Notes: generated from the sequence alone by a model not told the origin. A DNA stretch of 64,000 nucleotides from an uncultured Micrococcales bacterium (GCA_903909605.1 CAIVWH010000031.1:3704-67703); one strand, 5' to 3'; positions 2,993 to 61,182 are shown, counted from the first letter of the stretch. Translations and numbers: made by a program.

Positions 2993-3244
2993 CTAGTGCT
3001 CTTCGCCCACTTGAATTTGGCGGATGCGATTCTTAATTCCATCAAGCAAACTCTCTGGCGGAACCACATTGCAGTATTCCTCGATCTTGCGGTTGATCGC
3101 ATCCTCGAGGCCATACTCGGCATCGCAGGTGTCGCAGTTGGCGATGTGCTCGGTGATGAACTCGAGTTGCTCGGGGCTTAGCTCGTTCGCAAGATACTCG
3201 TGTACCTTCTGCTTAATTTCTTGACAGCTCATGTTCTCAGTCAT
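2993..3244 (-). CDS. rshA: zinc-binding anti-sigma factor (ZAS family, RshA/RsrA-like)
   Basis: H-x3-C-x2-C motif (EHIANCDTC) plus an N-terminal Cys (MSCQEIK). The gene lies immediately downstream of, and overlaps, the SigH-like gene. Start could be ATG 3244 or ATG 3232. Confidence 0.8.
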   Translation of the reverse strand: MTENMSCQEIKQKVHEYLANELSPEQLEFITEHIANCDTCDAEYGLEDAINRKIEEYCNVVPPESLLDGIKNRIRQIQVGEEH

Positions 3245-3833
3245 CAGCCGCATCCTTTCCGGTAAATGAGTAGCCCTCATCTTTTGCATATTCGAGCAGC
3301 AGTTCGCGCAAACGTGCCTTGGCGCGGTGCAGGCTGCTCATCACGGTGCCCTGCTTCATATCTAGCGCCTCAGCGATTTCGGCATAAGACATGCCTTCGA
3401 CAACACGGTAGGTGAGAACCTGACGCCAAGTGTCAGGAAGCTCCGCGAGCGCGCGTTCGATCTCTGGCGTGTTCATCGCTTCAATCGCTTCGATTTCTGC
3501 CGAGCGATTTTCTACCGAAGTCAGCGAAGGAGCCGAGCCAATCTGCCAATCCTCGAGCTCATCCAGTGCGGTCTTGCCCAGTTGCTTGTTCTTCTTGGAC
3601 TGGATGTTGCTATTGGTGTTGCGCATGATTGTGCGAAGCCAGGCCCGCAGTGCGGTTCCCTGCTCGAAGCTTGCGAATGAGCGGTAGGCCTTGATCGTGG
3701 TTTCCTGAACCAGGTCTTCGGCGTCGGTGCGGTTGTGGGTCATTCCGAGCGCCATCGCATACATGTAATTGGTAAGCGGCAGCACCTGCTGTTCGAACAG
3801 GGCGGTTAGTGCTGCATCTGGCAATTGACTCAT
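3237..3833 (-). CDS. sigH: ECF RNA polymerase sigma factor, SigH/SigR-like
   Basis: Region 2 (DAEDLVQETTIKAYRSF) and region 4 (MSYAEIAEALDMKQGTVMSSLHRAKARLRE) are present, with strong overall resemblance to mycobacterial SigH as I remember it. Start is placed at ATG 3833; the ORF track extends to 3905. Confidence 0.85.
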   Translation of the reverse strand: MSQLPDAALTALFEQQVLPLTNYMYAMALGMTHNRTDAEDLVQETTIKAYRSFASFEQGTALRAWLRTIMRNTNSNIQSKKNKQLGKTALDELEDWQIGSAPSLTSVENRSAEIEAIEAMNTPEIERALAELPDTWRQVLTYRVVEGMSYAEIAEALDMKQGTVMSSLHRAKARLRELLLEYAKDEGYSFTGKDAADD

Positions 3834-3963
3834 CGAGTTCGAGCCTACCTTCGCGCGGGCCTTGGGTAACTTGGTGTTTCGGGTGAATCCAGTGATCGTG
3901 GTCAAAACTCCCCTTCCAGTCTCAGCCTTTTGGGCCTCGAGTTCGGCTGGTAGCCTGAAACCA

Positions 3964-5268
3964 ATGACTTCAGCGAATAATTCCCGAGCTCTGGCCCCTT
4001 GGTCTGCCCCGGTCGCAGAAGGCCCAATTCACGCAACCGTGCGCCTGCCGGGCTCGAAGTCGCTAACCAACCGCGAACTGGTGCTCTCGGCCCTTGCCGA
4101 GACCCCAACCCTGATTCACTACGCGCTGGAAAGTCGCGACTCCAACCTGATGATTGAGGCCCTTAGAGCACTCGGCAGCCAGATCGAAATTCTCCCGGAT
4201 GGCGACATCCTGGTTACGCCAGCCCCATTCGATCGTGTCGCCACTATTGACTGCGGCCTAGCTGGCACTGTCATGCGCTTCGTGCCGCCGCTGGCCGCCC
4301 TCTCGAGCGAGGTAATCGACTTCGACGGCGACGAGGCAGCCCGCCGCCGCCCGATGAAAACCACTCTGGTGGCCCTTCGCGACCTCGGTGTCTTCGTCAC
4401 AGATGACGACGAGGGCCACCTGCCGTTCAGCATTCGCGGTGAGGGGCGCATCCAGGGTGGCGAAATCACCATCGATGCCTCGGCCTCATCGCAATTTGTT
4501 TCGGGCCTACTGATGGCGGCCCCGCGCTTCGAGCAGGGACTCACCCTGCGCCACGTCGGCGAACACCTGCCCTCGCTGCCGCACATCGAGATGACTCTCG
4601 AATGTCTGCGCGCTCGCGGTGTGAAGGTTTCGAACCCCGAGCCAACCGTTTGGCGGGTTGAACCTGGGCCAATTGCAGGTGGCGAGGTAACCATCGAACC
4701 AGATCTTTCGAATGCCGGTCCGTTCCTGGCAGCAGCGATGGTTGCCGGTGGTTCAGTGACCATTCCCGATTGGCCGGCAAAAACCAACCAGGTCGGCGAC
4801 GAGTTCGCCGGCATCTTGCAGAAGATGGGTGCCAACATCATTCGCAACGAAGACGGCTTGACCATCGAAGGCAGCGGCAAGATTCACGGCATCACCATCG
4901 ACCTCTCCATCGGTGGCGAGCTGACCCCCGTAATTGCGGCCCTTGCGGCAATCGCCGATTCACCGACTCGCATCTCCGGTGTTGCCCACCTTCGCGGCCA
5001 CGAGACCGATCGACTTGCCGCACTTGCCACCGAAATCAATCGAATCGGCGGCATTGCACGCGAAACCTCGGATGGCCTCGAGATCGAACCGAGTCCGGGC
5101 ATCACCGGCGGCCACTGGGCTACCTACGAAGACCACCGCATGGCAACCGCTGGCGCAATCATCGGCTTGCGCATCCCGGCAATTGAGATCGAAGACATTT
5201 CGACCACGGCCAAGACCATGCCGAACTTCGACAAGCTCTGGCTAAATATGCTTGGCGGCAAGGCTTGA
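3964..5268 (+). CDS. aroA: 3-phosphoshikimate 1-carboxyvinyltransferase (EPSP synthase)
   Basis: LPGSKSLTNRELVLSALAE near the N-terminus, with length and overall pattern typical of AroA. Start is chosen at ATG 3964 inside the longer ORF 3862..5268. Confidence 0.9.
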   Translation: MTSANNSRALAPWSAPVAEGPIHATVRLPGSKSLTNRELVLSALAETPTLIHYALESRDSNLMIEALRALGSQIEILPDGDILVTPAPFDRVATIDCGLAGTVMRFVPPLAALSSEVIDFDGDEAARRRPMKTTLVALRDLGVFVTDDDEGHLPFSIRGEGRIQGGEITIDASASSQFVSGLLMAAPRFEQGLTLRHVGEHLPSLPHIEMTLECLRARGVKVSNPEPTVWRVEPGPIAGGEVTIEPDLSNAGPFLAAAMVAGGSVTIPDWPAKTNQVGDEFAGILQKMGANIIRNEDGLTIEGSGKIHGITIDLSIGGELTPVIAALAAIADSPTRISGVAHLRGHETDRLAALATEINRIGGIARETSDGLEIEPSPGITGGHWATYEDHRMATAGAIIGLRIPAIEIEDISTTAKTMPNFDKLWLNMLGGKA

Positions 5269-6311
5269 GTTGGCTCTACGAGCCGGATGGCTCTGGCCAC
5301 GACCTCGACGAGAGCGATGTTCGAGTTCGCCCAAACCCCAAGGGCAATCGACCTCGCACCAAGATTCGGCCAACCCACGACGATGCCCCGATGGGCATGG
5401 TGTTGCAGGTAGACCTTGGCCGTTACCGAGTGCTGCTTGACCACGACCAGCGCATCGTCGATGCCACCATGGGCAAAGAAATGCGCAAGGCAGGTGCCGT
5501 TGTAGGCGACCGAGTCGCCCTGGCCGGTGACACCAGCGAAACCGTAGGTGCCCTGGCTCGCATTGCCCGAGTTGAGCCAAGAACCTCGTTGCTGCGCCGA
5601 AGCGCAGACGACAGCGACCAGGTCGAGCGCGTGATCGTTGCCAACGCAACGCAAATGCTGATTGTTACCTCGATTGCCAACCCCGAGCCGCGTGCCCGGC
5701 TCATCGACCGCTACCTCGCCGCCGCGTTCGATGCCGGCCTCAGGCCAATTCTCTGCATTACCAAGACTGACCTAGCCGACCCAAGTGAGTTCCTGAAGAA
5801 TTTCGAAGGCCTGAGCATCCCTGTGGTTTTGACTCGAAGCGACGACCCCAGCATCGCACCGCTGCGCGATGTGCTGCGCGATCAAATCACGGTGGCCGTT
5901 GGTCACTCCGGAGTTGGCAAGTCGACACTGGTGAATGCACTGGTGCCGGATGCATTGCGAGCAACCGGAGTGGTTAATGAAGTCACCGGTCGTGGTCGCC
6001 ACACGTCAACATCAGTTCGCGCAATTCGCCTGCCGAGCGATTTCGGCAACGCTTGGATCATTGACACCCCCGGTGTGCGAAGTTTCGGTCTCGGTCACGT
6101 GAACCTCGAAAACATTCTGCGCTCGTTCGAAGACCTCTACGCGGTAATCGAAACCTGTCCGCGCGACTGCTCGCACGCTGCCGACTCTCCCGATTGTGAA
6201 CTTGATTCCGCCATCTCGGATGGACGACTCGGAGAAACCGGATCACTCAGAGTCGATTCACTTCGTCGCCTAATGATTTCGATTTCGACCGCGGGTAAGT
6301 TGGACGAATGA
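5265..6311 (+). CDS. rsgA: ribosome small-subunit-dependent GTPase A
   Basis: Circularly permuted GTPase motifs (ITKTDL, then GHSGVGKSTLVNAL) and a C-terminal Cys cluster (CPRDCSHAADSPDC). The start overlaps the aroA stop by 4 nt. Confidence 0.9.
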   Translation: MSWLYEPDGSGHDLDESDVRVRPNPKGNRPRTKIRPTHDDAPMGMVLQVDLGRYRVLLDHDQRIVDATMGKEMRKAGAVVGDRVALAGDTSETVGALARIARVEPRTSLLRRSADDSDQVERVIVANATQMLIVTSIANPEPRARLIDRYLAAAFDAGLRPILCITKTDLADPSEFLKNFEGLSIPVVLTRSDDPSIAPLRDVLRDQITVAVGHSGVGKSTLVNALVPDALRATGVVNEVTGRGRHTSTSVRAIRLPSDFGNAWIIDTPGVRSFGLGHVNLENILRSFEDLYAVIETCPRDCSHAADSPDCELDSAISDGRLGETGSLRVDSLRRLMISISTAGKLDE

Positions 6312-7090
6312 GTTACGCAGCCGACCTTAAGCTCGCCCTCGAGCTTGCTGACATTGCAGATGCCGTTGCACTCGAGCGTTTTCGCGCCCTAGACCTCAAG
6401 GTCGAAACCAAACCGGATGCCTCGCCGGTGACCGATGCCGACCGCGCTACCGAGCGTGCCATCAAGGCCCGTCTGGCCGAGGCTCGACCGGGCGATGCCA
6501 TCATCGGCGAGGAATTCGGCAGCGAAGGCGCCGCCTCACGCACTTGGATTATCGACCCGATCGACGGTACGGCCAACTACATGCGCGGGGTGCCGATTTG
6601 GGCCAGCCTAATTTCGCTAGTCGTCGATGGTAAGCCCGTGGTTGGCGTGGTCAGCGCCCCAGCGCTCGGCCGCCGCTGGTGGGCCGCCGCCGGCCAAGGC
6701 GCATACACACGCGATATCGATGGGTCGCAGCGCCTCATCCAGGTTTCGAACATCGCAGATCTCGAGCACGCCAGCATCTCTTACAACAACCTTCGGTTGT
6801 GGGATGAATCGGGCAAGTTACCCCAGCTGATTGAACTCAGTCGAAGGCTTTGGCGCACCCGCGCCTATGGCGATTTTTACTCATACATGTTGCTCGCCGA
6901 AGGAACCCTCGAGATCGTGGCCGAGCACGGACTGCAGATTTACGACATCGCAGCCCTCGTGCCGATCGTCGAAGAAGCAGGCGGCAAACTCACCGATTTG
7001 TCAGGTGACTTGAGTGCAACTACATCTTCGACTCTTGCAACCAACGGCAAGCTGCACGAGTTGGCACAGAAGGCTTTCGAAACTTCCTAG
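6308..7090 (+). CDS. hisN: inositol monophosphatase family protein, probably histidinol-phosphatase HisN
   Basis: IMPase motifs (GEEFG, WIIDPIDGTANY, WASLISL) and an actinobacterial HisN-like N-terminus (DLKLALELADIADAV). Confidence 0.7.
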   Translation: MSYAADLKLALELADIADAVALERFRALDLKVETKPDASPVTDADRATERAIKARLAEARPGDAIIGEEFGSEGAASRTWIIDPIDGTANYMRGVPIWASLISLVVDGKPVVGVVSAPALGRRWWAAAGQGAYTRDIDGSQRLIQVSNIADLEHASISYNNLRLWDESGKLPQLIELSRRLWRTRAYGDFYSYMLLAEGTLEIVAEHGLQIYDIAALVPIVEEAGGKLTDLSGDLSATTSSTLATNGKLHELAQKAFETS

Positions 7091-51926: not shown

Positions 51927-52199
51927 CTAAGCGCCGAGCACCCAGTCGCGCTGCGAGGTCGTGTGCCACCCCTTGCAGGTTCCGCATTGGTAGACACGGC
52001 ACTCCTTGCGATTGGTGTGACCCAGCTCGACAATCTGAACGGCTGCCTTGTTCTGGAAACTGTGCAGGAACTGGATCGCCATCTTCTTGTCGCGGTAACG
52101 CACTTTGTCGCGATCGCCCGAGCAGTGGTCTAGTTCAGAGAACCGAGGAAAACGGCTGCGTCGGGCCTCTTGAGTGCGCTTGTGGTTGCGGTGTGACAT
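51927..52199 (-). CDS. small basic Cys/His-rich protein (GH ... CxxC-x-GWH motif)
   Basis: 90 aa with an excellent AAGGAG RBS 6 nt before ATG 52199. Motif ELGHTNRKECRVYQCGTCKGWHTTSQ. Confidence 0.65.
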   Translation of the reverse strand: MSHRNHKRTQEARRSRFPRFSELDHCSGDRDKVRYRDKKMAIQFLHSFQNKAAVQIVELGHTNRKECRVYQCGTCKGWHTTSQRDWVLGA

Positions 52200-52465: not shown

Positions 52466-52681
52466 TCAGACCACACCAACAAAGCGCCTGCCCGTCATCA
52501 TCAACTTTTTTATGCCATGGACGCCGCGCTCTTGGAAATGCACGGCGGTGGTCAGCTCACCCGCCTTGAGCCGGCTGCGCCACTGGGCATACCAGTGCGT
52601 CTGTGGGTTGGTCGACTGTGCAATCAGCCCCTCAACTCGAGCCTTTGCATCGATTTGTGATTTGTCATACTTCGGATTCAT
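52466..52681 (-). CDS. hypothetical small protein
   Basis: 71 aa; its ATG overlaps the stop of the upstream gene (ATGA). Confidence 0.5.
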   Translation of the reverse strand: MNPKYDKSQIDAKARVEGLIAQSTNPQTHWYAQWRSRLKAGELTTAVHFQERGVHGIKKLMMTGRRFVGVV

Positions 52682-53157
52682 TCGGCACTTCCTTCAACGT
52701 GTTCGATACGCACACATCCTGGATGCTGCGCGAGTGTCGCTTCAAGATCGATCAGTGGTTGGCCATCGCCGGCAACGTCTTCGCGACGAACTACAGCCCA
52801 ACGGCCACAGCAGTTTTGGCAGTAGAGCTCGTGGCCACGACCATCCTGGAAATTGTGAATCAGCAGCGTGGCGACCTCGCCGCCTTGCAGATGGCCGAAG
52901 GCGAGGTACACCTGGGTTTCGGAATTAGGTGCAATCAGGCCGCAGGTGCAGACTTCGATCTCGTCGTCTAAGTGGTGCGCGACATCGTGGATGCCCTGGA
53001 TCTGATCGATGACGTATTCGGTCCACTCGCTCGAGCGGCGGGAGTACATCCAGCGGCCGTATCTCTCTTGCGGGGTCTCGGCCTTCTGGCGCTCGAGGCG
53101 CTCGTATCGGGCGAGGGTTTTGGCCGCGTTACGAAGCGGCGCGTAGTACTTAGGCAT
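52678..53157 (-). CDS. hypothetical Cys/His-rich protein (CTCG ... GHLQGGEVAT ... CQNCCGRW)
   Basis: 159 aa. An AAAGGGG RBS sits inside a hairpin just before ATG 53157. Confidence 0.6.
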   Translation of the reverse strand: MPKYYAPLRNAAKTLARYERLERQKAETPQERYGRWMYSRRSSEWTEYVIDQIQGIHDVAHHLDDEIEVCTCGLIAPNSETQVYLAFGHLQGGEVATLLIHNFQDGRGHELYCQNCCGRWAVVRREDVAGDGQPLIDLEATLAQHPGCVRIEHVEGSAE

Positions 53158-53331: not shown

Positions 53332-53691
53332 TTATGACGAAAGATTAGACCCAGGCGCCGACATTGCGCCATCATCTTTAGGCGTGTTGTCGACAAACCA
53401 AATCAGCTCGTAGCGATCGATGATGTGACCGATGCTCACCTCGACGAATGGCGAACCCGGGCCATCAGCATATTCACGGATTGTGGTGTGCCAACCGAAA
53501 CCGTCGTTCGCGAGATTGATTGCCTGCATCGCCATTGTGTGCCGCTGGTCGCGGTATTCCTTGGTGTATGTGCGGTCGTTGGTGGTCATCGCAAGGTAGC
53601 AGCGCAGCTTCTTGTTTAGCGGTGCATCCTTCGGCAGAATCTGTTCGAGCAGCGAGATCTTCAATAGTTGCTTTGAGACGTGAGTTTGCAT
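53332..53691 (-). CDS. hypothetical protein
   Basis: 119 aa from ATG 53691, preceded by an AGGAGG RBS (ATAGGAGGCCC ATG). No recognisable family. Confidence 0.6.
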   Translation of the reverse strand: MQTHVSKQLLKISLLEQILPKDAPLNKKLRCYLAMTTNDRTYTKEYRDQRHTMAMQAINLANDGFGWHTTIREYADGPGSPFVEVSIGHIIDRYELIWFVDNTPKDDGAMSAPGSNLSS

Positions 53692-53871
53692 GGGCCTCCT
53701 ATGGCATTGGAACCTAAGAAACAAAGATTTTTGAGACTTTATTTCTAAATGTCAGAAACTTTTTCGAAAATCTTTCTCCTATATACACAGGGGGAATTTG
53801 TCCCCTGACTTATTAGTTCCCAGAGTTTCGAAAATGTCCGTACACATATGAGGGAAAAATCTGTTCTGTTA
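53692..53871. promoter_or_regulatory. AT-rich intergenic region with TTTCGAAA palindromes, a 12-nt direct repeat and a hairpin (internal island promoter/operator candidate)
   Basis: TTTTCGAAAA at 53761-53770 and TTTCGAAA at 53826-53833. TTAT(T/C)AGTTCCC at 53810-53821 and 53869-53880. CAGGGG-N8-CCCCTG at 53788-53807. Confidence 0.45.
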
Positions 53872-54840
53872 TCAGTTCCCGAAACTCGACAGCGCCAGGT
53901 TGGTCGCAAGAGTGCGCAGATCGTCGACTTTGTAGTCGGGCCATCCGTGAACAATGCTCGACCACTCGGCAGGAATGTTCGAGTCGCCCCATCGAGCGCC
54001 GACCAACGAGCCGCAGATTGCCGCGGTGGTGTCGGTGTCGTCGCCTACCCGCACGCAGAGCTCGACGGCCGCCTTGAACTGATAGCGGCCCTCGTAGGCA
54101 GTCTGGGTAATGGCTGCCCAGGCTAGTTGTATCGATGAAATCACGTAGCCATTCGGGTTGAACTCGAAAGGGTCGGTCTTCTCGGCGGCCTTCATGCGCT
54201 CTCGCCACAGTTCGCGCGAAACCGGATCGAGCTGGTCGATGCCGTGCCAGAGCCCGTCGTAGTTGCCGTTCAAGACCGCGCCACGGATAGCCTCTGACCA
54301 GATGTAGCAGGCCTGCCAGCACTCGTCGGCCGAGTGAGTGAGCTCACTGAACGACTTGGCCGCCTCGAGCAGCCCTGCCCTGCCATCGAGAAAACCAAGT
54401 GCGATTGGGCTGGTTCGCATCAGGCTGCCATTTCCGTGGTGGCGCTCGTGAGCACTGGCGTAGTCGCGGGTTGCCTGCATCATCTCGCGGAACAGCTCTT
54501 CAGGGTCGCCCTCGTTGGCCATGATTCGCGCGAAAACAGACGATGTCTGAATGCCGATGTCTTTGGCCGACTTTTGCCACTCGAAGAACTGAGTGGCCGC
54601 CGACTGCAAAGCACGGTCACTCGAAAAGCCATGCGCTAGCCCAGCTCGACCAATGGCCACGGCCTGGTCAGTGTCGTCGGTCCACTCGCCTAGACCGAAC
54701 ATCGGCCCGGCCTTCATAACCACCTCGGCGCTCGGCGCCAGGGGACGTCCGAACTCGTACGACTGGCCAAGCGCATCGCCAACGGCCTGACCAACAAGCG
54801 CACCGCGAGCGCGATCGAGCAAATCTGCATCAAGTTTCAT
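53872..54840 (-). CDS. ADP-ribosylglycohydrolase family protein (ARH/DraG/Tri1-like)
   Basis: ALVGQAVGDALGQSYEFG, GEWTDDTDQAVAI and a C-terminal GDDTDTTAAICGSLVGARWG. The start ATG 54840 shares one base with the upstream stop (TGATG). Confidence 0.88.
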   Translation of the reverse strand: MKLDADLLDRARGALVGQAVGDALGQSYEFGRPLAPSAEVVMKAGPMFGLGEWTDDTDQAVAIGRAGLAHGFSSDRALQSAATQFFEWQKSAKDIGIQTSSVFARIMANEGDPEELFREMMQATRDYASAHERHHGNGSLMRTSPIALGFLDGRAGLLEAAKSFSELTHSADECWQACYIWSEAIRGAVLNGNYDGLWHGIDQLDPVSRELWRERMKAAEKTDPFEFNPNGYVISSIQLAWAAITQTAYEGRYQFKAAVELCVRVGDDTDTTAAICGSLVGARWGDSNIPAEWSSIVHGWPDYKVDDLRTLATNLALSSFGN

Positions 54841-55127
54841 CAGTGCCTCCTGCTTTCTTTTTGCTTGCCGCGAATGAACGCCACGATCCCATAGATGTTC
54901 CAAGTTGCCATAAGCACGAACACCAAAATGAATGCGCCTACTGTCCGGTCGGCGATCCAATAATCGTGGAACCAGTAGTAGGTGTTTGCTTTCTTACCGT
55001 TGGCCCAATAGATCTCGAACCAGAAGCGATCGAGTGGTAGCAGCCAAAGCGCTACTTGAGTTATCACGCCGGCAGTCAAAGTGAACCGCCAGCGGCGACT
55101 AAGTAATTTCCAGACCGACTCTTTCAT
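54840..55127 (-). CDS. small membrane protein (2-3 TM), hypothetical
   Basis: 95 aa. The AGGAG RBS overlaps the stop of the upstream gene, and the ORF is coupled to the ARH gene downstream. Confidence 0.6.
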   Translation of the reverse strand: MKESVWKLLSRRWRFTLTAGVITQVALWLLPLDRFWFEIYWANGKKANTYYWFHDYWIADRTVGAFILVFVLMATWNIYGIVAFIRGKQKESRRH

Positions 55128-55136
55128 TTCTTGCTC

Positions 55137-55589
55137 CTAAATGTGAAGTGCGGCGAGCAGGCCCACCAGCAAGGTAATAAGGACCTGCAGCGCGGGCGCG
55201 ATCCAGGCGGTCCATTTGGTGGCTTTCGACATCCAAACCAGGTGGTTTGCAACTCGATGACTTGAATCGGCAACCCAGCGACTTAAGCGCGCCATAGCTA
55301 ACCAAATGATGATTAGAGCCACTTCGCAAATGGCATTCCGAGAGTCATCAGTGATGTCGAAAGGAGGCTTCACCCAGTCGATGACCCAATTAGTCAACTC
55401 GCCGAGCGAAAAGTACAGAACGACCGAATAAGCAAAGGCGCGGTGCCTGGTTGTTTTGAAGATGCCATCGGCGTTATCGCGATCACAGTCAATCCCACAC
55501 AAATGGCCGGGGTGGTCATGTATCTCGTCGTCCTCATAGCCGATGTAGTCAGAGAAAAACTCACCCAAGCGTCGAAGATAGGCGAACAT
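55137..55589 (-). CDS. membrane protein with N-terminal DHPGHLCGIDC motif (paralogue B)
   Basis: 150 aa with 3 hydrophobic segments. Clear paralogy to the upstream gene (DYIG ... D-x-PGH-x-CGIDC ... RL ... AD-x-S ... AN-x-L ... K). TGATG junction with the upstream gene. Confidence 0.65.
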   Translation of the reverse strand: MFAYLRRLGEFFSDYIGYEDDEIHDHPGHLCGIDCDRDNADGIFKTTRHRAFAYSVVLYFSLGELTNWVIDWVKPPFDITDDSRNAICEVALIIIWLAMARLSRWVADSSHRVANHLVWMSKATKWTAWIAPALQVLITLLVGLLAALHI

Positions 55590-56071
55590 CAGTGACCCCC
55601 AAACCAGCCTTGGATTGTCTCAATCAACCAGAACACGGGGTAGTAAGCGACTGCGCTGCCGAACAAAAGGTAAGTCGCAAACTTGGCACCTTTGGCCACA
55701 AACAACAAACGATTTGCTTCATTCTGGCTGTGATCCGCGATGCGCTTGGCAAGACGCCGCGCCCCTAGCCAAATAAACAGGGTCAAGAGCGTAGGCAAGA
55801 CCAAACGCGTGGGCCGAGTCTGCCACTCGAGTGGAACAACATAAGAAAGTGCCTTAGGCGCCAACCAGGACATCCCGAAAAAGAGGAAGTACATCGTGTA
55901 GCGCGTCAACCTTTTAGGGTCGTTGTACCAAGCCACCTTTGGCTCAACCAAGCAGTCGATGCCACAGATGTGCCCCGGATAATCGTGTTCGGAGTCATAC
56001 TGGCGCGGCCCGCTGCTCAACCCGATGTAATCGAGAATCCGCTGCCATCTGCTCAAGTCTTGATCTGCCAT
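55589..56071 (-). CDS. membrane protein with N-terminal DYPGHICGIDC motif (paralogue A)
   Basis: 160 aa with 3 hydrophobic segments and a GGAGGG RBS before ATG 56071. First gene of the operon. Confidence 0.65.
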   Translation of the reverse strand: MADQDLSRWQRILDYIGLSSGPRQYDSEHDYPGHICGIDCLVEPKVAWYNDPKRLTRYTMYFLFFGMSWLAPKALSYVVPLEWQTRPTRLVLPTLLTLFIWLGARRLAKRIADHSQNEANRLLFVAKGAKFATYLLFGSAVAYYPVFWLIETIQGWFGGH

Positions 56072-56108
56072 GAGCCCTCCGTTCTTCAGAAAACGAAGGT
56101 ATTGCCCA

Positions 56109-56132
56109 CCTCCGACATTCGAATGTCGGAGG
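56109..56132. promoter_or_regulatory. perfect 24-bp palindrome in the divergent promoter region (operator candidate)
   Basis: CCTCCGACATTC|GAATGTCGGAGG, located between start codons at 56071 (minus) and 56171 (plus). Confidence 0.6.
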
Positions 56133-56170
56133 CCTGATTTACCTTCTTTCTCTCACCGAAAGAGGGACTT

Positions 56171-57334
56171 ATGACTTCTCAAATCATCGTCATGAACTTG
56201 CAAGGCGTCGCCGTAGCGTCTGACACAGCCGTCACCAAACGCACCGAAAACAGCCTGCAGAACGCCGGCTTCGAGAGCAAGATCATCCGATTGCCTGAGC
56301 CGCACAAGGTCGCGATTCTGCATGCAGGCATGACCAACATCAACAACGTGCCGCACCTATGGCAGATTCGCCAGTGGGTCGCCACGCTCAGCAAGGCGCT
56401 ACCCACGGTCAAGGACTACGTCGACAGTTACGTGCGCTTCAGCAACGCCGACAAGGTCATGGTGCCAAATGCCACCGGCCAAGGCGTCGTGCGGTGGGTT
56501 CTTGAGTCATTCATCGATGTGGAGGCTCGCCACCTGGGCAAGAGTGCGCGCAATTCTTTCAACGCTAAGCTCACCGACAAGCAGAACATCGCCGCCGCGC
56601 GCAAGGCGATCGCTCAGCACCTGTCTGAGATGAAGGCCTTCTACAAGGAAGCGCCTACCTTCAAAGGTCTGACCCGCGAGGGCGTCGCCCGCGCCATGGC
56701 CCCACTCAAGAAGCACCTCAACAAGTATTTCGCTGAGGCCTTTGCGCAGATCCCGATCTCAACTGCTCAGACCTCAACCCTCAAGGGCATGATGGCCGAT
56801 GTGTTGCTCAAGCAAGACAGCGCACCGTCAGACTCGATCCTGCACTTTGTCGGCTTTGGCACAACCGAGCGCTATGCCCGACTCCATAAGGCGATCGTGC
56901 GCGGCAAATATGCCGGCAAACTCGTGGCTGGCGTATTTCAACTCGGGCCGCAGGTCGGCCCTGGCGAGAAAGAGAACAGCATCGACTGCTGGACCACCTC
57001 GCAGAACGACGCCATCAACTCATTCATGATGGGCTACCACCCGCAGACTCTCGAAACCGTCGACAAGGCGCTGGGCAAGGCCTTTGGCGAGAAGCTTGCC
57101 GAGGCACACCCCGACTTGGATGTTCGTTCAGCAGTTCACTCCACCACCCACCAGGCTTTCAGCCAAGCGCGCGATGAGCTCTCGCAGCCGATGTGGGATG
57201 CCCTGCGAAACCAGTCGGTCGAAAGCCTGGCGGAGTTCGCCAAGGCCATGGTCACTATCCAGTCCCTCTCGAGTTTTTACCGCGGGGATGGCACTGTTGG
57301 TGGCGATGTTGAAACGTACTTACTTCGAAAGTAG
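56171..57334 (+). CDS. proteasome-beta/HslV-like Ntn-hydrolase fold protein with large helical insertions (inferred)
   Basis: 387 aa with a GAAAGAGGGA RBS. N-terminus M-TSQIIVMNLQGVAVASDTAVT ... SKIIRLPEPHKVAILHAGMT parallels HslV and PrcB. This gives Thr1, Asp17 and a Lys at about position 36. The C-terminal TVGGDVETYLL resembles the GG-x-V-x-V-x-x-I end of beta subunits. Confidence 0.55.
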   Translation: MTSQIIVMNLQGVAVASDTAVTKRTENSLQNAGFESKIIRLPEPHKVAILHAGMTNINNVPHLWQIRQWVATLSKALPTVKDYVDSYVRFSNADKVMVPNATGQGVVRWVLESFIDVEARHLGKSARNSFNAKLTDKQNIAAARKAIAQHLSEMKAFYKEAPTFKGLTREGVARAMAPLKKHLNKYFAEAFAQIPISTAQTSTLKGMMADVLLKQDSAPSDSILHFVGFGTTERYARLHKAIVRGKYAGKLVAGVFQLGPQVGPGEKENSIDCWTTSQNDAINSFMMGYHPQTLETVDKALGKAFGEKLAEAHPDLDVRSAVHSTTHQAFSQARDELSQPMWDALRNQSVESLAEFAKAMVTIQSLSSFYRGDGTVGGDVETYLLRK

Positions 57335-57497
57335 TTGCAACTTTTTAACAGCGGGGATATCCGGGGAAACCATCTGCCAGTTCAGTAAATCGGTGATCTT
57401 GACCCACTCCATGGCATCGTGATCGGTGCTCTCGAATACCTTCTCTACGGAAAGCGCGACTTGAAACGTCACTAATTCGATTTCAAGTTCGCCGACT

Positions 57498-57902
57498 ACG
57501 GTAGCGACCCTTTTGCGGGCGCTCGGCACGCCAGACTGGCCCGGTTTGAATGGCCTTGAAAACTCGTGGCAGCTTGGCTGCGTTGGTGGCGTAGTAGCGA
57601 GTCAGCGGAACAGTCAGGTCAAAGCGCAGGCTGAGGTCGGCAAGGTTGTCTTTTCGCTGGTGTCGACAAGTGCGCGCTCAAGCTCTTCGCCGCGCTTCAT
57701 GACTCGGTAGGCAAGCTTCTCGTTGTCGCCACCTTGACCACTGGTCAGGCGGCTGAGGTCTTCGAGGGTCGGGGTTTCGATCTCTTGGTATCAGTGACTC
57801 TTCTATGTCTCACGGATAGTCCCGAGCACACGATCGCGCTTGGCCTTCTCGGCTGGCAAGAAGTCGCGCATGCCTCTTGGAGGGTTCACGTCTTTAGCCA
57901 TG
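57498..57902 (-). pseudogene. hisS: displaced, decayed 5' fragment of hisS (about codons 1-135)
   Basis: Aligns with 49101..49514. Carries a 10-nt deletion (near 57650) and in-frame stops: RDTYKKHGYQ in the intact copy corresponds to RET*KSH*Y here. Confidence 0.85.
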
Positions 57903-57939: not shown

Positions 57940-59118
57940 GTGAAAAAGTACAAATTTGAAGAACTTTCGACTGCAGATTTAGTTATCGACGCTATTTATG
58001 AGGGTGATAGGTCGACGTCGTCTTATGGCGGAGAACCATTGCACCACCTAATGCCTGGTCTTGGTACCCAGGGTGGTTTTAGAAAACGCAAGGGGCTCGG
58101 TGAAAACTTTGTCGGTCTTGTACTGACAAGTACAGGTAATGAACCTGACTGGCCTGATGAGCTAAACCCTTTCACCGGAACCTACACATATTTTGGCGAC
58201 AATCGCACGCCAGGAAAAGATCTTCACGACACTAAACCCGGTGGAAATAAGACTCTTGCACAAATTTTCGAATTGGCCCATGGCGATTCCGAGTCGCGGG
58301 CAAGATGTCCTTTGATATTGATTTTTGAATCTGTCGGCACAGGTCGCGATATGGTTTTTCGTGGTCTCGCGGTTCCTGGCACACGCCAGTTAGGTCCACG
58401 TGAAGATTTAGTAGCTATTTGGAAATCTTTTGGAGGGCAAAGATTTCAAAACTACAAAGCCATGTTCACAATCTTGGATTGTGGCTCAATTTCAGGTTCT
58501 TGGATTCGCGAAGTGTTTACTTCACGTGCCATAAATCTTGATGACCAGAGAACGCCTTTGGCTTACCGAAACTGGGTCGAATCAGGGAAGATTCAACCCC
58601 TGATGTCAGAACCGATCAAAACTCGGTCTCCTGAAGATCAGATGCCCCTTCCTGGTCTTCAAACTTTCTTAATTGAACAAATCAGAGAAACCTTTGCATC
58701 AGACCCATATGCTTTCGAACCAATTGCAGCTGAAATTTGGCGCATGTCTAGCCCGACACCAATGGAGTTTGAAATGACCAAACGTTATCGCGATGGAGGG
58801 CGAGACGCAATCGGATACCTTCTGCTCGGCCCGAAATCAGATGCTATCAAGGTCCACTTTGCGCTTGAAGCAAAACTTTACGGCAAGACCACTCGCGTTG
58901 GGGTCAAAGAAACAAGCCGGTTAATTTCTCGATTAAAGCACAGAGAATTTGGGGTGTTGGTTACGACTTCAGTTTTAGACCGACAGGCCTATGAGGAAAT
59001 TCGTTCGGATTCACATCCGATTATTGTGATATCCGCCCGCGATGTTGCAGAAATTCTCATAAGCCAAGGCGTCAATAATCCGATTTTGCTTGCGGAATGG
59101 ATTGATTCGCTCAATTAG
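57940..59118 (+). CDS. modification-dependent (type IV) restriction endonuclease, AspBHI/Mrr-like
   Basis: C-terminal PD-(D/E)xK of Mrr type with D-x20-EAK spacing (GGRDAIGY ... FALEAKLY). The N-terminal ~230-aa domain resembles the AspBHI-type modified-cytosine reader as I recall it. The gene is visibly AT-richer than its surroundings. GAGGGG RBS before GTG 57940. Confidence 0.65.
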   Translation: MKKYKFEELSTADLVIDAIYEGDRSTSSYGGEPLHHLMPGLGTQGGFRKRKGLGENFVGLVLTSTGNEPDWPDELNPFTGTYTYFGDNRTPGKDLHDTKPGGNKTLAQIFELAHGDSESRARCPLILIFESVGTGRDMVFRGLAVPGTRQLGPREDLVAIWKSFGGQRFQNYKAMFTILDCGSISGSWIREVFTSRAINLDDQRTPLAYRNWVESGKIQPLMSEPIKTRSPEDQMPLPGLQTFLIEQIRETFASDPYAFEPIAAEIWRMSSPTPMEFEMTKRYRDGGRDAIGYLLLGPKSDAIKVHFALEAKLYGKTTRVGVKETSRLISRLKHREFGVLVTTSVLDRQAYEEIRSDSHPIIVISARDVAEILISQGVNNPILLAEWIDSLN

Positions 59119-60032: not shown

Positions 60033-60136
60033 GGCACAAGTTTGGCAGAGCGATTTTGGGGTTGTGCACAACTGGGGCGGGTAATTGCAGCGGTTGGCAA
60101 GATGCTTGAGTGCCTTCAATTCAGTACTTCGACGCG

Positions 60137-60502
60137 ATGGAATTCAGTGCTTTCTTAGAGTCGCTAGAAACTGAGGACCGAATCCTGGTTGCCATGTTTC
60201 TGGACACCCTGGCTAAGTACGGCCCTGACGTGGACGGCCGATGGTTCAAGACTCTGCCAGATGACCTAATCCAAGTGCGAATTGGGCCAACAAGACAGGT
60301 GGTTGGTTCGCGTTTGGGTCTTTCGCTAAGCACACCTAGTGAGCCAATGCTCATTCGCATCTACCTGATTGAGTCGGGGCCGAACATCGTCATTCTGAAT
60401 GGCTACGACAAAGAAAAGGATCGATCTCGTGCAACGCAGCAAGCCGCCATTCGACTGGCCAACCTTAGGGCGGAATTGTGTAAGTCGAACCTTGCTAGGT
60501 GA
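60137..60502 (+). CDS. type II toxin, RelE/ParE superfamily, Gp49/HigB-like
   Basis: FKTLPDDLIQVRIG ... IRIYLIESGPNIVILNGYDKEKDRSRATQQAAIRLA fits the Gp49-like pattern. The start could be GTG 60110. Confidence 0.7.
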   Translation: MEFSAFLESLETEDRILVAMFLDTLAKYGPDVDGRWFKTLPDDLIQVRIGPTRQVVGSRLGLSLSTPSEPMLIRIYLIESGPNIVILNGYDKEKDRSRATQQAAIRLANLRAELCKSNLAR

Positions 60503-60846
60503 AGTGTTTTATTACATCATTGAACTGGGAGGTAATTGTGGGACAGCATGAGGAAATCTGGGCTCCGATTAAGGGCAGCTGGTCAGAGGCTGAGTGGGCC
60601 TTTTACAACCAAGGAATGCAGGCATTGCAATTCGAAGTTCAGAGAGTTCGTCTTGGGCAGTTAGTGAAAACTGCGCGCCTGGCGAAGGGGCTTTCCCAGC
60701 GAGCATTGGCTGAGCTGACTGGGGTTCAGCAGCGGGAAATTTGCCGCATTGAAAATCACAAAGGAAACCCGACGCTTGCAACGCAACACAAATTGTTCAG
60801 TGCGCTTGGCATCCGAACTGTCTTCGAGATACCTGCCGCAGCCTAG
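60499..60846 (+). CDS. XRE-family HTH antitoxin (HigA-like)
   Basis: GTGA overlap with the toxin stop. HTH segment LSQRALAELTGVQQREICRIENHKGNPTLATQHKLFSALG. Confidence 0.75.
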   Translation: MKCFITSLNWEVIVGQHEEIWAPIKGSWSEAEWAFYNQGMQALQFEVQRVRLGQLVKTARLAKGLSQRALAELTGVQQREICRIENHKGNPTLATQHKLFSALGIRTVFEIPAAA

Positions 60847-60894
60847 TTGTTGATAACCCGAGCGGGGTTTTCTGACGGGGTTTAGGTTGACGGC

Positions 60895-61182
60895 ATGATT
60901 GACGAACCCGAACTTGCCGCCGGATGGACCAAAGCCGACTGGGAGCACTACCGCCTGCTATCGCTTGCCCTGAGCCTCGAGGCTGAACGCGGGCGAATCG
61001 GTGACTTGTTGTTCGAGCGGCGCTGCGAGCAAGGGTTCACTCGCGGTCAATTGGCTCGCCTCACCGGGATGCGCGCCAAAGACATCAAGCGAATTGAAAA
61101 GGGGCGGGGTGATCCGCCGTTGAGCCTGCTGCATGGCCTGTTCGAGGTGCTCGGAATTGCTGCGCGTTACTCGGCGCTTTGA
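60895..61182 (+). CDS. second XRE-family HTH protein
   Basis: FTRGQLARLTGMRAKDIKRIEKGRGDPPLSLLHGLFEVLG. The 3' end overlaps the mfd 3' end by 16 nt. Confidence 0.65.
   Translation: MIDEPELAAGWTKADWEHYRLLSLALSLEAERGRIGDLLFERRCEQGFTRGQLARLTGMRAKDIKRIEKGRGDPPLSLLHGLFEVLGIAARYSAL

Follow-up and report, generated by a model that had tools for sequence, protein, structure and literature searches.

A proteasome-like hydrolase gene and a divergent membrane-protein gene persist within one lineage at a variable locus of an uncultured Micrococcales bacterium

The locus described here lies in a 64,000-nucleotide stretch of DNA from an uncultured Micrococcales bacterium (GCA_903909605.1 CAIVWH010000031.1:3704-67703), which is referred to below as the window. 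It holds five genes, named A to E: a minus-strand run encoding two paralogous membrane proteins (A and B), a small hydrophobic protein (C) and an ADP-ribosylhydrolase (ARH; D), and, divergent from this run, a gene for a proteasome-like N-terminal nucleophile (Ntn) hydrolase (E). The five genes do not form a conserved five-part system. Within the lineage, as judged from gene order and sequence comparison, the element that persists is the divergent pair formed by E and an A-like membrane-protein gene. The explanation preferred here, which carries roughly even weight, is a lineage-restricted accessory locus of freshwater-type Actinomycetota that has the E and A-family pair as its stable core, is not a five-component system, and most likely serves in conflict or stress. 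The new leads are modest: a conserved candidate operator, an E gene that stays paired with a membrane-protein gene throughout the lineage, and restriction-modification (R-M) genes next to members of the E family.

The E-A pair and its palindrome across related loci

The related loci all come from short metagenomic contigs or metagenome-assembled genomes (MAGs). The locus survey used a five-sequence alignment of E, because a 12-sequence alignment was too diverse for a locus search, and it is biased to members with the motifs MT[SAT]QI and GVA[VLI]ASDT. An earlier note on the window had proposed an undescribed module whose five genes would be found together in other genomes; in the neighbourhood survey, such co-occurrence outside this genome is largely absent. 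The note's remark that no described system has this composition holds insofar as none is known, but the composition itself is not conserved.

The complete five-gene arrangement occurs only on metagenomic contigs of the same species (L008-L010). In L059, E is 75% identical to that of the window and stands with a divergent A homologue, which carries HDYDGHICGIDC, the proline of the motif being replaced by aspartate. L001 is more distant (E 38%, ARH 60% and MazG 72% identical to the window). Its set consists of E, a single A-like membrane-protein gene, whose product lacks the His/Cys motif of A and B, and an ARH gene 5 nt away from that membrane gene; B, C and the restriction enzyme are missing. 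The Actinomycetota MAG L011 has an E that is 39% identical, an A-like protein again without the His/Cys motif and an unrelated small transmembrane (TM) protein, with no ARH. Neither ARH nor any A, B or C homologue was found at the metagenomic E-family loci (0 of 42), and none is apparent at five further E-family loci, namely the genomes L012 and L013, two plasmids and one phage. B-like and C-like genes also occur away from E: in L060 (166-1823), the gene of the B-like protein P0142 is followed by a C homologue and is divergent from an HNH_2 endonuclease gene, and E is not adjacent.

Four loci of the lineage (window, L059, L001 and L011) retain E next to an A-family gene, while the genes on both sides vary: R-M cassettes on one side, and B, C and ARH on the other. 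In the window, L001 and L011 the locus is syntenic, flanked by mazG-mfd on one side and by the same small conserved genes on the other. E differs far more between the window and L001 than MazG or ARH does, and the membrane proteins evolve faster still, the A-like proteins of L001 and L011 being 28% identical where E is 72% and MazG 82% identical.

The divergent region between A and E (56072-56170, 99 nt) contains a perfect palindrome, as the earlier note had reported. Its sequence, CCTCCGACATTCGAATGTCGGAGG, occurs once in the window and was matched in none of 100 shuffles. It is centred on 56120.5, halfway from the A start (56071) to the E start (56171), and comparison of the related loci shows it to be the best-conserved block of the intergenic region. 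L059 keeps it at 24 of 24 positions. L001 keeps a 20-bp perfect core, TCCGACATTCGAATGTCGGA, with its centre ~50 nt from each start codon, and this core persists even though the flanking E is at 38% identity and the A-like protein is beyond BLAST recognition. L011 has the half-sites CCGACATT and AATGTCGG, separated by ~35 nt. Since the palindrome is both conserved and centred, co-regulation of the two transcription units is plausible, and its symmetry and conservation support a shared operator for a dimeric DNA-binding protein. Co-regulation of the five genes in this species, proposed at the outset, is thus likely. The region upstream of the L060 pair holds AAGTGTCGGAGG, which resembles one arm of the window's palindrome. 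In the window, the region of the XRE genes at 60499-60846 and 60895-61182 supplies candidate regulators, for which no link to the palindrome was found.

Gene coupling and the encoded proteins

The four minus-strand genes are tightly coupled and an open reading frame (ORF) listing agrees with their previously given extents (Table 1). The A stop and B start share TGATG at 55587-55591, the C stop and D start share TGATG at 54838-54842, and an AGGAG 7-11 nt 5' of the C start covers part of the TAG stop of B; all of these had been pointed out before and are read in the sequence. GC content at third codon positions (GC3) is host-like, at 0.63-0.76 across A to E (0.65 in C), which supports all five ORFs as genuine genes. 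A hairpin (53788-53807) and an AT-rich gap ~150-180 nt long are found 3' of the D stop.

Table 1. Features of the locus and its restriction endonuclease neighbour (positions counted from the first letter of the window)
Feature	Position	Strand	Length	Assignment
Gene A	55589-56071	minus	160 aa	predicted membrane protein, paralogue of B
Gene B	55137-55589	minus	150 aa	paralogue of A, motif HDHPGHLCGIDC
Gene C	54840-55127	minus	95 aa	small hydrophobic protein
Gene D	53872-54840 (from its ATG)	minus	322 aa	ADP-ribosylglycohydrolase, DraG/Tri1 branch; last operon gene
Gene E	56171-57334	plus	387 aa	proteasome-beta/HslV-fold Ntn hydrolase
Palindrome	56109-56132	no strand	24 bp	perfect palindrome CCTCCGACATTCGAATGTCGGAGG; candidate shared operator of divergent promoters
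Restriction endonuclease (neighbour, outside the five genes)	57940-59118	plus		AspBHI-like, methyl-directed; PF18062 and PF04471; PADLOC mREase_II, E-value 2.9e-137

Several small genes border the locus. Downstream of the ARH gene lie three, at 53332-53724 (130 aa), 52678-53157 (159 aa) and 51927-52199 (90 aa), the latter two Cys-rich; none belongs to a Pfam family, all are kept in L001 and two in L011, and they form a conserved left flank. On the other side, a 69-aa minus-strand ORF (57320-57529), which belongs to no family, overlaps the 3' end of E by 15 nt and is called as a gene on the same-species metagenomic contigs; the interval of ~600 nt between E and the restriction endonuclease is otherwise unannotated.

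Profile scans gave E no Pfam, NCBIfam or PADLOC family, and a word-indexed search of 5.8 billion clusters returned only 11 relatives. An AlphaFold2 (AF2) model built from those relatives reached a predicted local distance difference test score (pLDDT) of 85 and a predicted template modelling score (pTM) of 0.81. The top 50 Foldseek matches of this model in the PDB are all proteasome beta, Anbu, BPH or HslV chains (highest probability 1.0); the TM-scores of these matches are low (TMt 0.24-0.52) because of insertions in E. The best match in the viral library BFVD is a phage proteasome beta protein (E-value 1.2e-4). An E-family profile run against PDB sequences gave noise only, so that a fold search was needed to place the protein. 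Model and fold search agree with the original description of E as a proteasome-like Ntn hydrolase.

Residues T2, D18, K37, G228, G230 and T375-V-G-G378 are invariant in relatives down to 20% identity (20-26% alignment), and T2, D18 and K37 do not vary in a set of relatives at 20-75% identity that spans several bacterial phyla and a phage. Thr2 becomes Thr1 after removal of Met, with no propeptide, and T2, D18 and K37 correspond to the proteasome Thr1/Asp17/Lys33 set, a predicted catalytic site. The E of L059 has a TTG start, yet M-T-A-Q-L-I-V-M-N is kept.

In the AF2 model, the proteasome core carries two helical insertions. One follows H1/H2 at ~100-213 (helices 100-128, 136-160, 169-190 and 198-213), and the other, at ~291-345 (helices 318-337 and 339-345), lies between H3 (280-312) and H4 (350-371). 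A survey of 2021 described 22 proteasome homologue families, without functional clues and without informative neighbourhoods; among them are those named "Proteasome homolog with Multiple Insertions" (PMI), of unknown function (Fuchs, Alva & Lupas 2021, PMC8665760). PMI-3 and PMI-4 have two insertions, a long one following H1/H2 and a second between H3 and H4 (PMC8665760), the same pattern as in E. The PMI insertions were argued to be incompatible with stacked ring or double-ring assembly, and of PMI-3 and PMI-4, only PMI-4 is listed for both Actinobacteria and phages (PMC8665760, Table 1). The E family is spread over Actinobacteria, Proteobacteria, Acidobacteriota, Chloroflexota and one Bacteroidota phage, its remote members coming from Acidobacteriota, Chloroflexota, Alphaproteobacteria plasmids and a Porphyromonas phage; this distribution fits the PMI-4 row and supports that placement. 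By its modelled architecture, E is thus probably a PMI-type homologue, PMI-4, placed by architecture and distribution and not by sequence clustering. The idea that E represents an undescribed type is accordingly dropped: the protein is probably a new member or close variant of a published uncharacterised class. The membrane proteins A, B and C are orphans.

A and B are paralogues, as proposed in the earlier note, with 29% identity (E-value 3e-17) and a common HD[YH]PGH[IL]CGIDC motif. A, B and C had no Pfam, NCBIfam or PADLOC match in profile scans, and the only protein recovered by a word-indexed search with A was A. Among 1.84 billion representatives, an exhaustive HMMER profile search added a single real member to A and B: P0142, the closest relative of B, in which the motif reads EHDYPGHICGVDC. 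A further hit of that search, P0143, was rejected as a repetitive artefact. The AF2 model of A, from a three-sequence alignment, is of low confidence (pLDDT 61). It shows an N-terminal helix, a loop bearing the motif HDYPGHICGIDC, and then three long hydrophobic or amphipathic helices; the loop is itself of low confidence and probably disordered. Hydropathy and charge distribution suggest that A and B have their N-termini inside, which would place the His/Cys motif in the cytoplasm, where it might form a metal site. The membrane protein of L001 matches B weakly (E-value 4e-4). The C homologue of L060 shares the pattern ...RW..T..A...TQ...WLLPLD..., and the 87-aa TM protein of L011 at the C position has no detectable similarity to C.

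D matches PF03747 over profile positions 1-287 of 287 (E-value 1.6e-46; 159.7 bits against a cut-off of 26.2), and its identification as an ADP-ribosylglycohydrolase stands. Residues D22, E29, T54-D55-D56, G136-N137-G138 and D268-T269-D270-T271, which include the acidic/Thr motifs of the di-metal site, do not vary in six relatives (42-60% identity) and align with those of 2cwc. The individual metal ligands among them are presumably those generally known from ARH3 and DraG. The closest PDB entries are 2cwc, 6dre (Tri1) and 3g9d (DraG), and D falls below the equivalog cut-offs for Tri1 (NF041672; 91.2 vs 490 bits) and DraG (TIGR02662; 71.7 vs 337). Its relatives number more than 3188 clusters at an E-value of 1e-40 or below, mostly from Actinobacteria, some of them with a fused phosphatase or macro domain. 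The protein is a genuine ARH with an intact predicted catalytic site and an unremarkable representative of its large family. Relatives 45-53% identical to it occupy unrelated neighbourhoods, and relatives are widespread in Mycobacterium, Rhodococcus, Gordonia and Nanopelagicales without common neighbours. The possibility that ARH relatives share the small downstream genes was rejected, the neighbours in L016 being unrelated lipoprotein-like and RDD-like proteins. No ADP-ribosyltransferase (ART) domain was recognised among the five genes or the neighbours scanned at 48.3-63.9 kb with Pfam, NCBIfam and PADLOC, in agreement with the first reading of the sequence, although a divergent ART invisible to these profiles could escape such a scan.

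Genomic surroundings of the locus and of the E family

The restriction endonuclease beside E has a GC3 of 0.40, against 0.62-0.79 for the other genes checked, which points to a foreign, recently acquired gene next to native A to E. The position changes between genomes: L001 has nothing between mazG and E, and L011 has a DNA methyltransferase and an HNH enzyme there (614 and 390 aa, with a 237-aa ORF, at 3230-7018). This interval between mazG and E is a hotspot for the insertion of R-M genes. The setting had been described as a genomic island with a type IV restriction enzyme and a toxin-antitoxin locus, and each part of this needs qualification. R-M cassettes do insert alongside, but the locus itself is syntenic in three genomes and compositionally native. 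A restriction enzyme does adjoin, more exactly an AspBHI-like methyl-directed one. An XRE helix-turn-helix protein (115 aa) is encoded within 60110-61182, but its would-be toxin is only a Gp49/HigB-like ORF (130 aa) below the Pfam threshold, which overlaps it; a second XRE gene (95 aa) follows, and this one is kept beside mfd in L001 and L011. An Rfam scan of 48-64 kb gave one sub-threshold chance match only.

Elsewhere in the E family, R-M or helicase-type genes recur as neighbours. With E proteins collapsed at 80% identity, 7 of the 20 E-family loci with at least 3 kb of flank have such a gene within three called ORFs, or 8 of 20 if the window lineage is hand-scored, its restriction endonuclease being the next substantial gene after E though beyond three crude ORF calls; this is a small count, from crude ORF calling and with no matched control. 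On this crude count, the adjacency appears well above expectation for random genes, and it involves several E subclades. Neighbours in the wider family include type I (L038) and type III (L045) systems, type IIG together with HKD-Snf2 (L025/L027), SNF2 with DUF1156 (L004), an MkoA-like helicase (L003), DNA methyltransferases, Ser/Thr kinases, TPR proteins and DUF3293. No partner is constant across the family, in agreement with Fuchs et al. (PMC8665760). Literature on proteasome-like proteins or ARH in defence systems yielded nothing specific.

Individual E-family neighbourhoods differ widely. In L003 (440-9085), an E homologue (27% identity) lies beside a 1158-aa RNase_H_2/AAA helicase with MkoA-like PADLOC matches, and on its other side are a convergent HSP70-like protein (573 aa) and an unknown 604-aa protein. 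In 11 metagenomic loci (L022-L024, L029, L030, L032-L034, L038, L044 and L046), the E homologue comes last in a row of co-directional genes; a TPR protein (~305 aa) is often encoded among them, and a signal-anchored four-Cys protein (~160 aa) always directly 5' of E, a context unlike that of the window. The proteins of cluster c1, upstream of E homologues, were tried as analogues of A and B and rejected, as they are secreted or signal-anchored four-Cys proteins without similarity to A or B. Another subclade has a co-directional DUF3293 protein (~150 aa, ITAWNPG) directly 5' of E (L037 2484-2942, L042 1022-1480 and L049 965-1375). On a Mesorhizobium plasmid (L063, NZ_AP023255.1, 2733-7437), a 478-aa E-family homologue follows two small unknown ORFs and is divergent from a Multi_ubiq and Prok-E2_E fusion and a ThiF-type E1, with an XRE-RES toxin-antitoxin pair adjoining; here a bacterial proteasome-like gene stands beside a ubiquitin-like conjugation system.

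A scan of IMG/VR viral contigs found no E relatives, and GenBank phages hold one remote member, in Porphyromonas phage BK068103.1 (L061, 6001-7245). This 414-aa protein, 21% identical over its full length and with a weak N-terminal match to Pfam Proteasome, is encoded in the head-morphogenesis block between portal/adaptor and neck/tape-measure genes, where a prohead protease or capsid-related protein would be expected.

Competing explanations and comparison with known systems

In the preferred explanation, a dimeric repressor at the palindrome would switch both transcription units together. The intact triad, the missing propeptide and insertions at assembly interfaces suggest that E is most likely a substrate-specific, non-compartmentalised Thr1 peptidase or transpeptidase and not a bulk protease. 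Its site of action might be the membrane or its vicinity, where the A-family protein would anchor it, regulate it or serve as its substrate. The membrane operon would have grown in this species by duplication (A and B); it also carries C and D, all translationally coupled. The ARH would be an optional accessory that takes mono-ADP-ribose off a target close to the membrane, probably at arginine. Since E-family genes stand repeatedly beside R-M and helicase systems across phyla, a conflict or stress role is proposed for E and, by association, for the locus, which would most likely take part in conflicts that involve phages or mobile elements, or else in a stress response linked to them.

Several observations weigh against this explanation. 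The four E-A loci all come from a single lineage and lie at one and the same site in the chromosome (MazG 72-82% identical), so that common descent could account for the E-A adjacency with no functional link; adjacency alone is no proof of function. The similarity of A and B to the A-like proteins of L001 and L011 is only marginal (E-values 0.002 and 4e-4), and the latter two lack the His/Cys motif. Distant E-family members have no A-like partner and are often solitary, the one in L013 lying among housekeeping genes. None of A to E has a match in PADLOC-DB v2 at E-values up to 0.1, where only the neighbouring restriction endonuclease matches. The limits noted above for the R-M adjacency count and the PMI-4 placement belong here as well. 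The main rival is that the genes are neighbours by descent only: functionally unrelated genes of the lineage, with the palindrome as a local promoter or operator and the ARH as a general regulatory or housekeeping de-ADP-ribosylase. This is possible, if doubtful. It accords with the synteny of the whole region in the window, L001 and L011, with native codon composition, with widespread ARH relatives that have no common neighbours, and with an E family that elsewhere has no constant partner (as in PMC8665760). It sits less easily with an E-A junction and centred palindrome that outlast both flank turnover and protein divergence to 38% or beyond recognition, with the coupling of the ARH gene to membrane genes (TGATG in the window, a 5-nt gap in L001), and with the apparently non-random association of the E family with R-M and helicase genes.

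Bolder readings fare less well. In one, which is unlikely, the PMI-type E family would be an unrecognised conflict-system component of defence islands, a Thr1 peptidase or transpeptidase with variable partners, here co-repressed through the shared palindrome with fast-evolving membrane proteins and a membrane-tethered ARH and triggered by phage or stress; if so, the module would be without a described counterpart. Improbable, too, is the original idea that the five genes are one dedicated, undescribed conflict or defence system, for instance with the ARH as reverser of, or immunity factor for, an unrecognised ADP-ribosylating activity. Tight translational coupling, the shared conserved palindrome, the R-M and toxin-antitoxin-like neighbours and four of five proteins without a known family speak for it. 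Full co-occurrence, however, is limited to this species, L001 having no B or C and L011 no ARH; a B-C pair stands beside an HNH_2 gene without adjacent E; 0 of 47 other E-family loci have ARH or A, B or C; the ARH family has over 3000 clusters in unrelated contexts; and the ART scan described above was negative. An ARH-centred five-gene system is not worth carrying forward as a claim. Least probable of all is a connectase-like reading, by analogy, in which E would be a sequence-specific peptidase or ligase acting on the HD[YH]PGH[IL]CG[IV]DC loop of A and B. Connectase recognises a short KDPGA linker motif between the soluble domain and the TM anchor of MtrA (PMC7980362). The motif of A, B and P0142 is invariant, sits in a linker that is modelled with low confidence and probably disordered, immediately ahead of the membrane helices, and would resemble the short motif next to a TM anchor that Connectase targets (PMC7980362). 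The motif is not KDPGA, however, and its proline is aspartate in L059; the A-like proteins of L001 and L011 lack it though E is kept; and the P0142 gene is not beside an E gene.

The comparison with Connectase extends to E itself, which shares with it the proteasome fold, an N-terminal Thr/Ser nucleophile, the lack of a propeptide and helical additions incompatible with rings, as in monomeric Connectase. A membrane-anchored partner known through a short linker motif also offers a parallel, by analogy, to the proposed link between E and A/B. The two differ in the site of insertion, which is S3/S4 in Connectase and elsewhere in E, where H1/H2 are kept. E has no Pfam DUF2121/Connectase match, and it is bacterial and not tied to methanogenesis, whereas Connectase is an archaeal protein ligase.

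D resembles DraG and Tri1, its best-scoring characterised relatives, in fold family and in metal-binding signature residues. Unlike them, it has neither an ART partner such as DraT or Tre1 nor nif genes or a type VI secretion context, and it belongs to an actinobacterial ARH clade that is large and uncharacterised. DraG activity is controlled through sequestration of the enzyme at the membrane, which offers a conceptual parallel to a D that would be co-translated with membrane proteins.

The likeness to defence islands lies in the variable R-M cassettes that adjoin E in the window and L011 and in the R-M or helicase neighbours at 8 of 20 E-family loci. The five genes themselves differ from such islands: they have no PADLOC match, are native in composition and syntenic, and are not a mobile island.

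The closest known counterparts of E are the PMI-4 homologues, which it resembles in its proteasome-beta-like core, the Thr1/Asp17/Lys33 set, the missing propeptide, both insertion sites, and a sparse but broad distribution that includes Actinobacteria and phages. If the defence-island association holds in complete genomes, it would be the first biological role indicated for a PMI proteasome homologue. For the published families, no genomic context pointed to a specific function (PMC8665760), whereas E is paired with a membrane protein in its lineage, has a shared candidate operator and is recurrently adjacent to R-M or helicase genes. The locus thus offers handles on a PMI-like family: a candidate partner in A, a conserved candidate operator that implies a dedicated regulator, and a position beside R-M and helicase genes.

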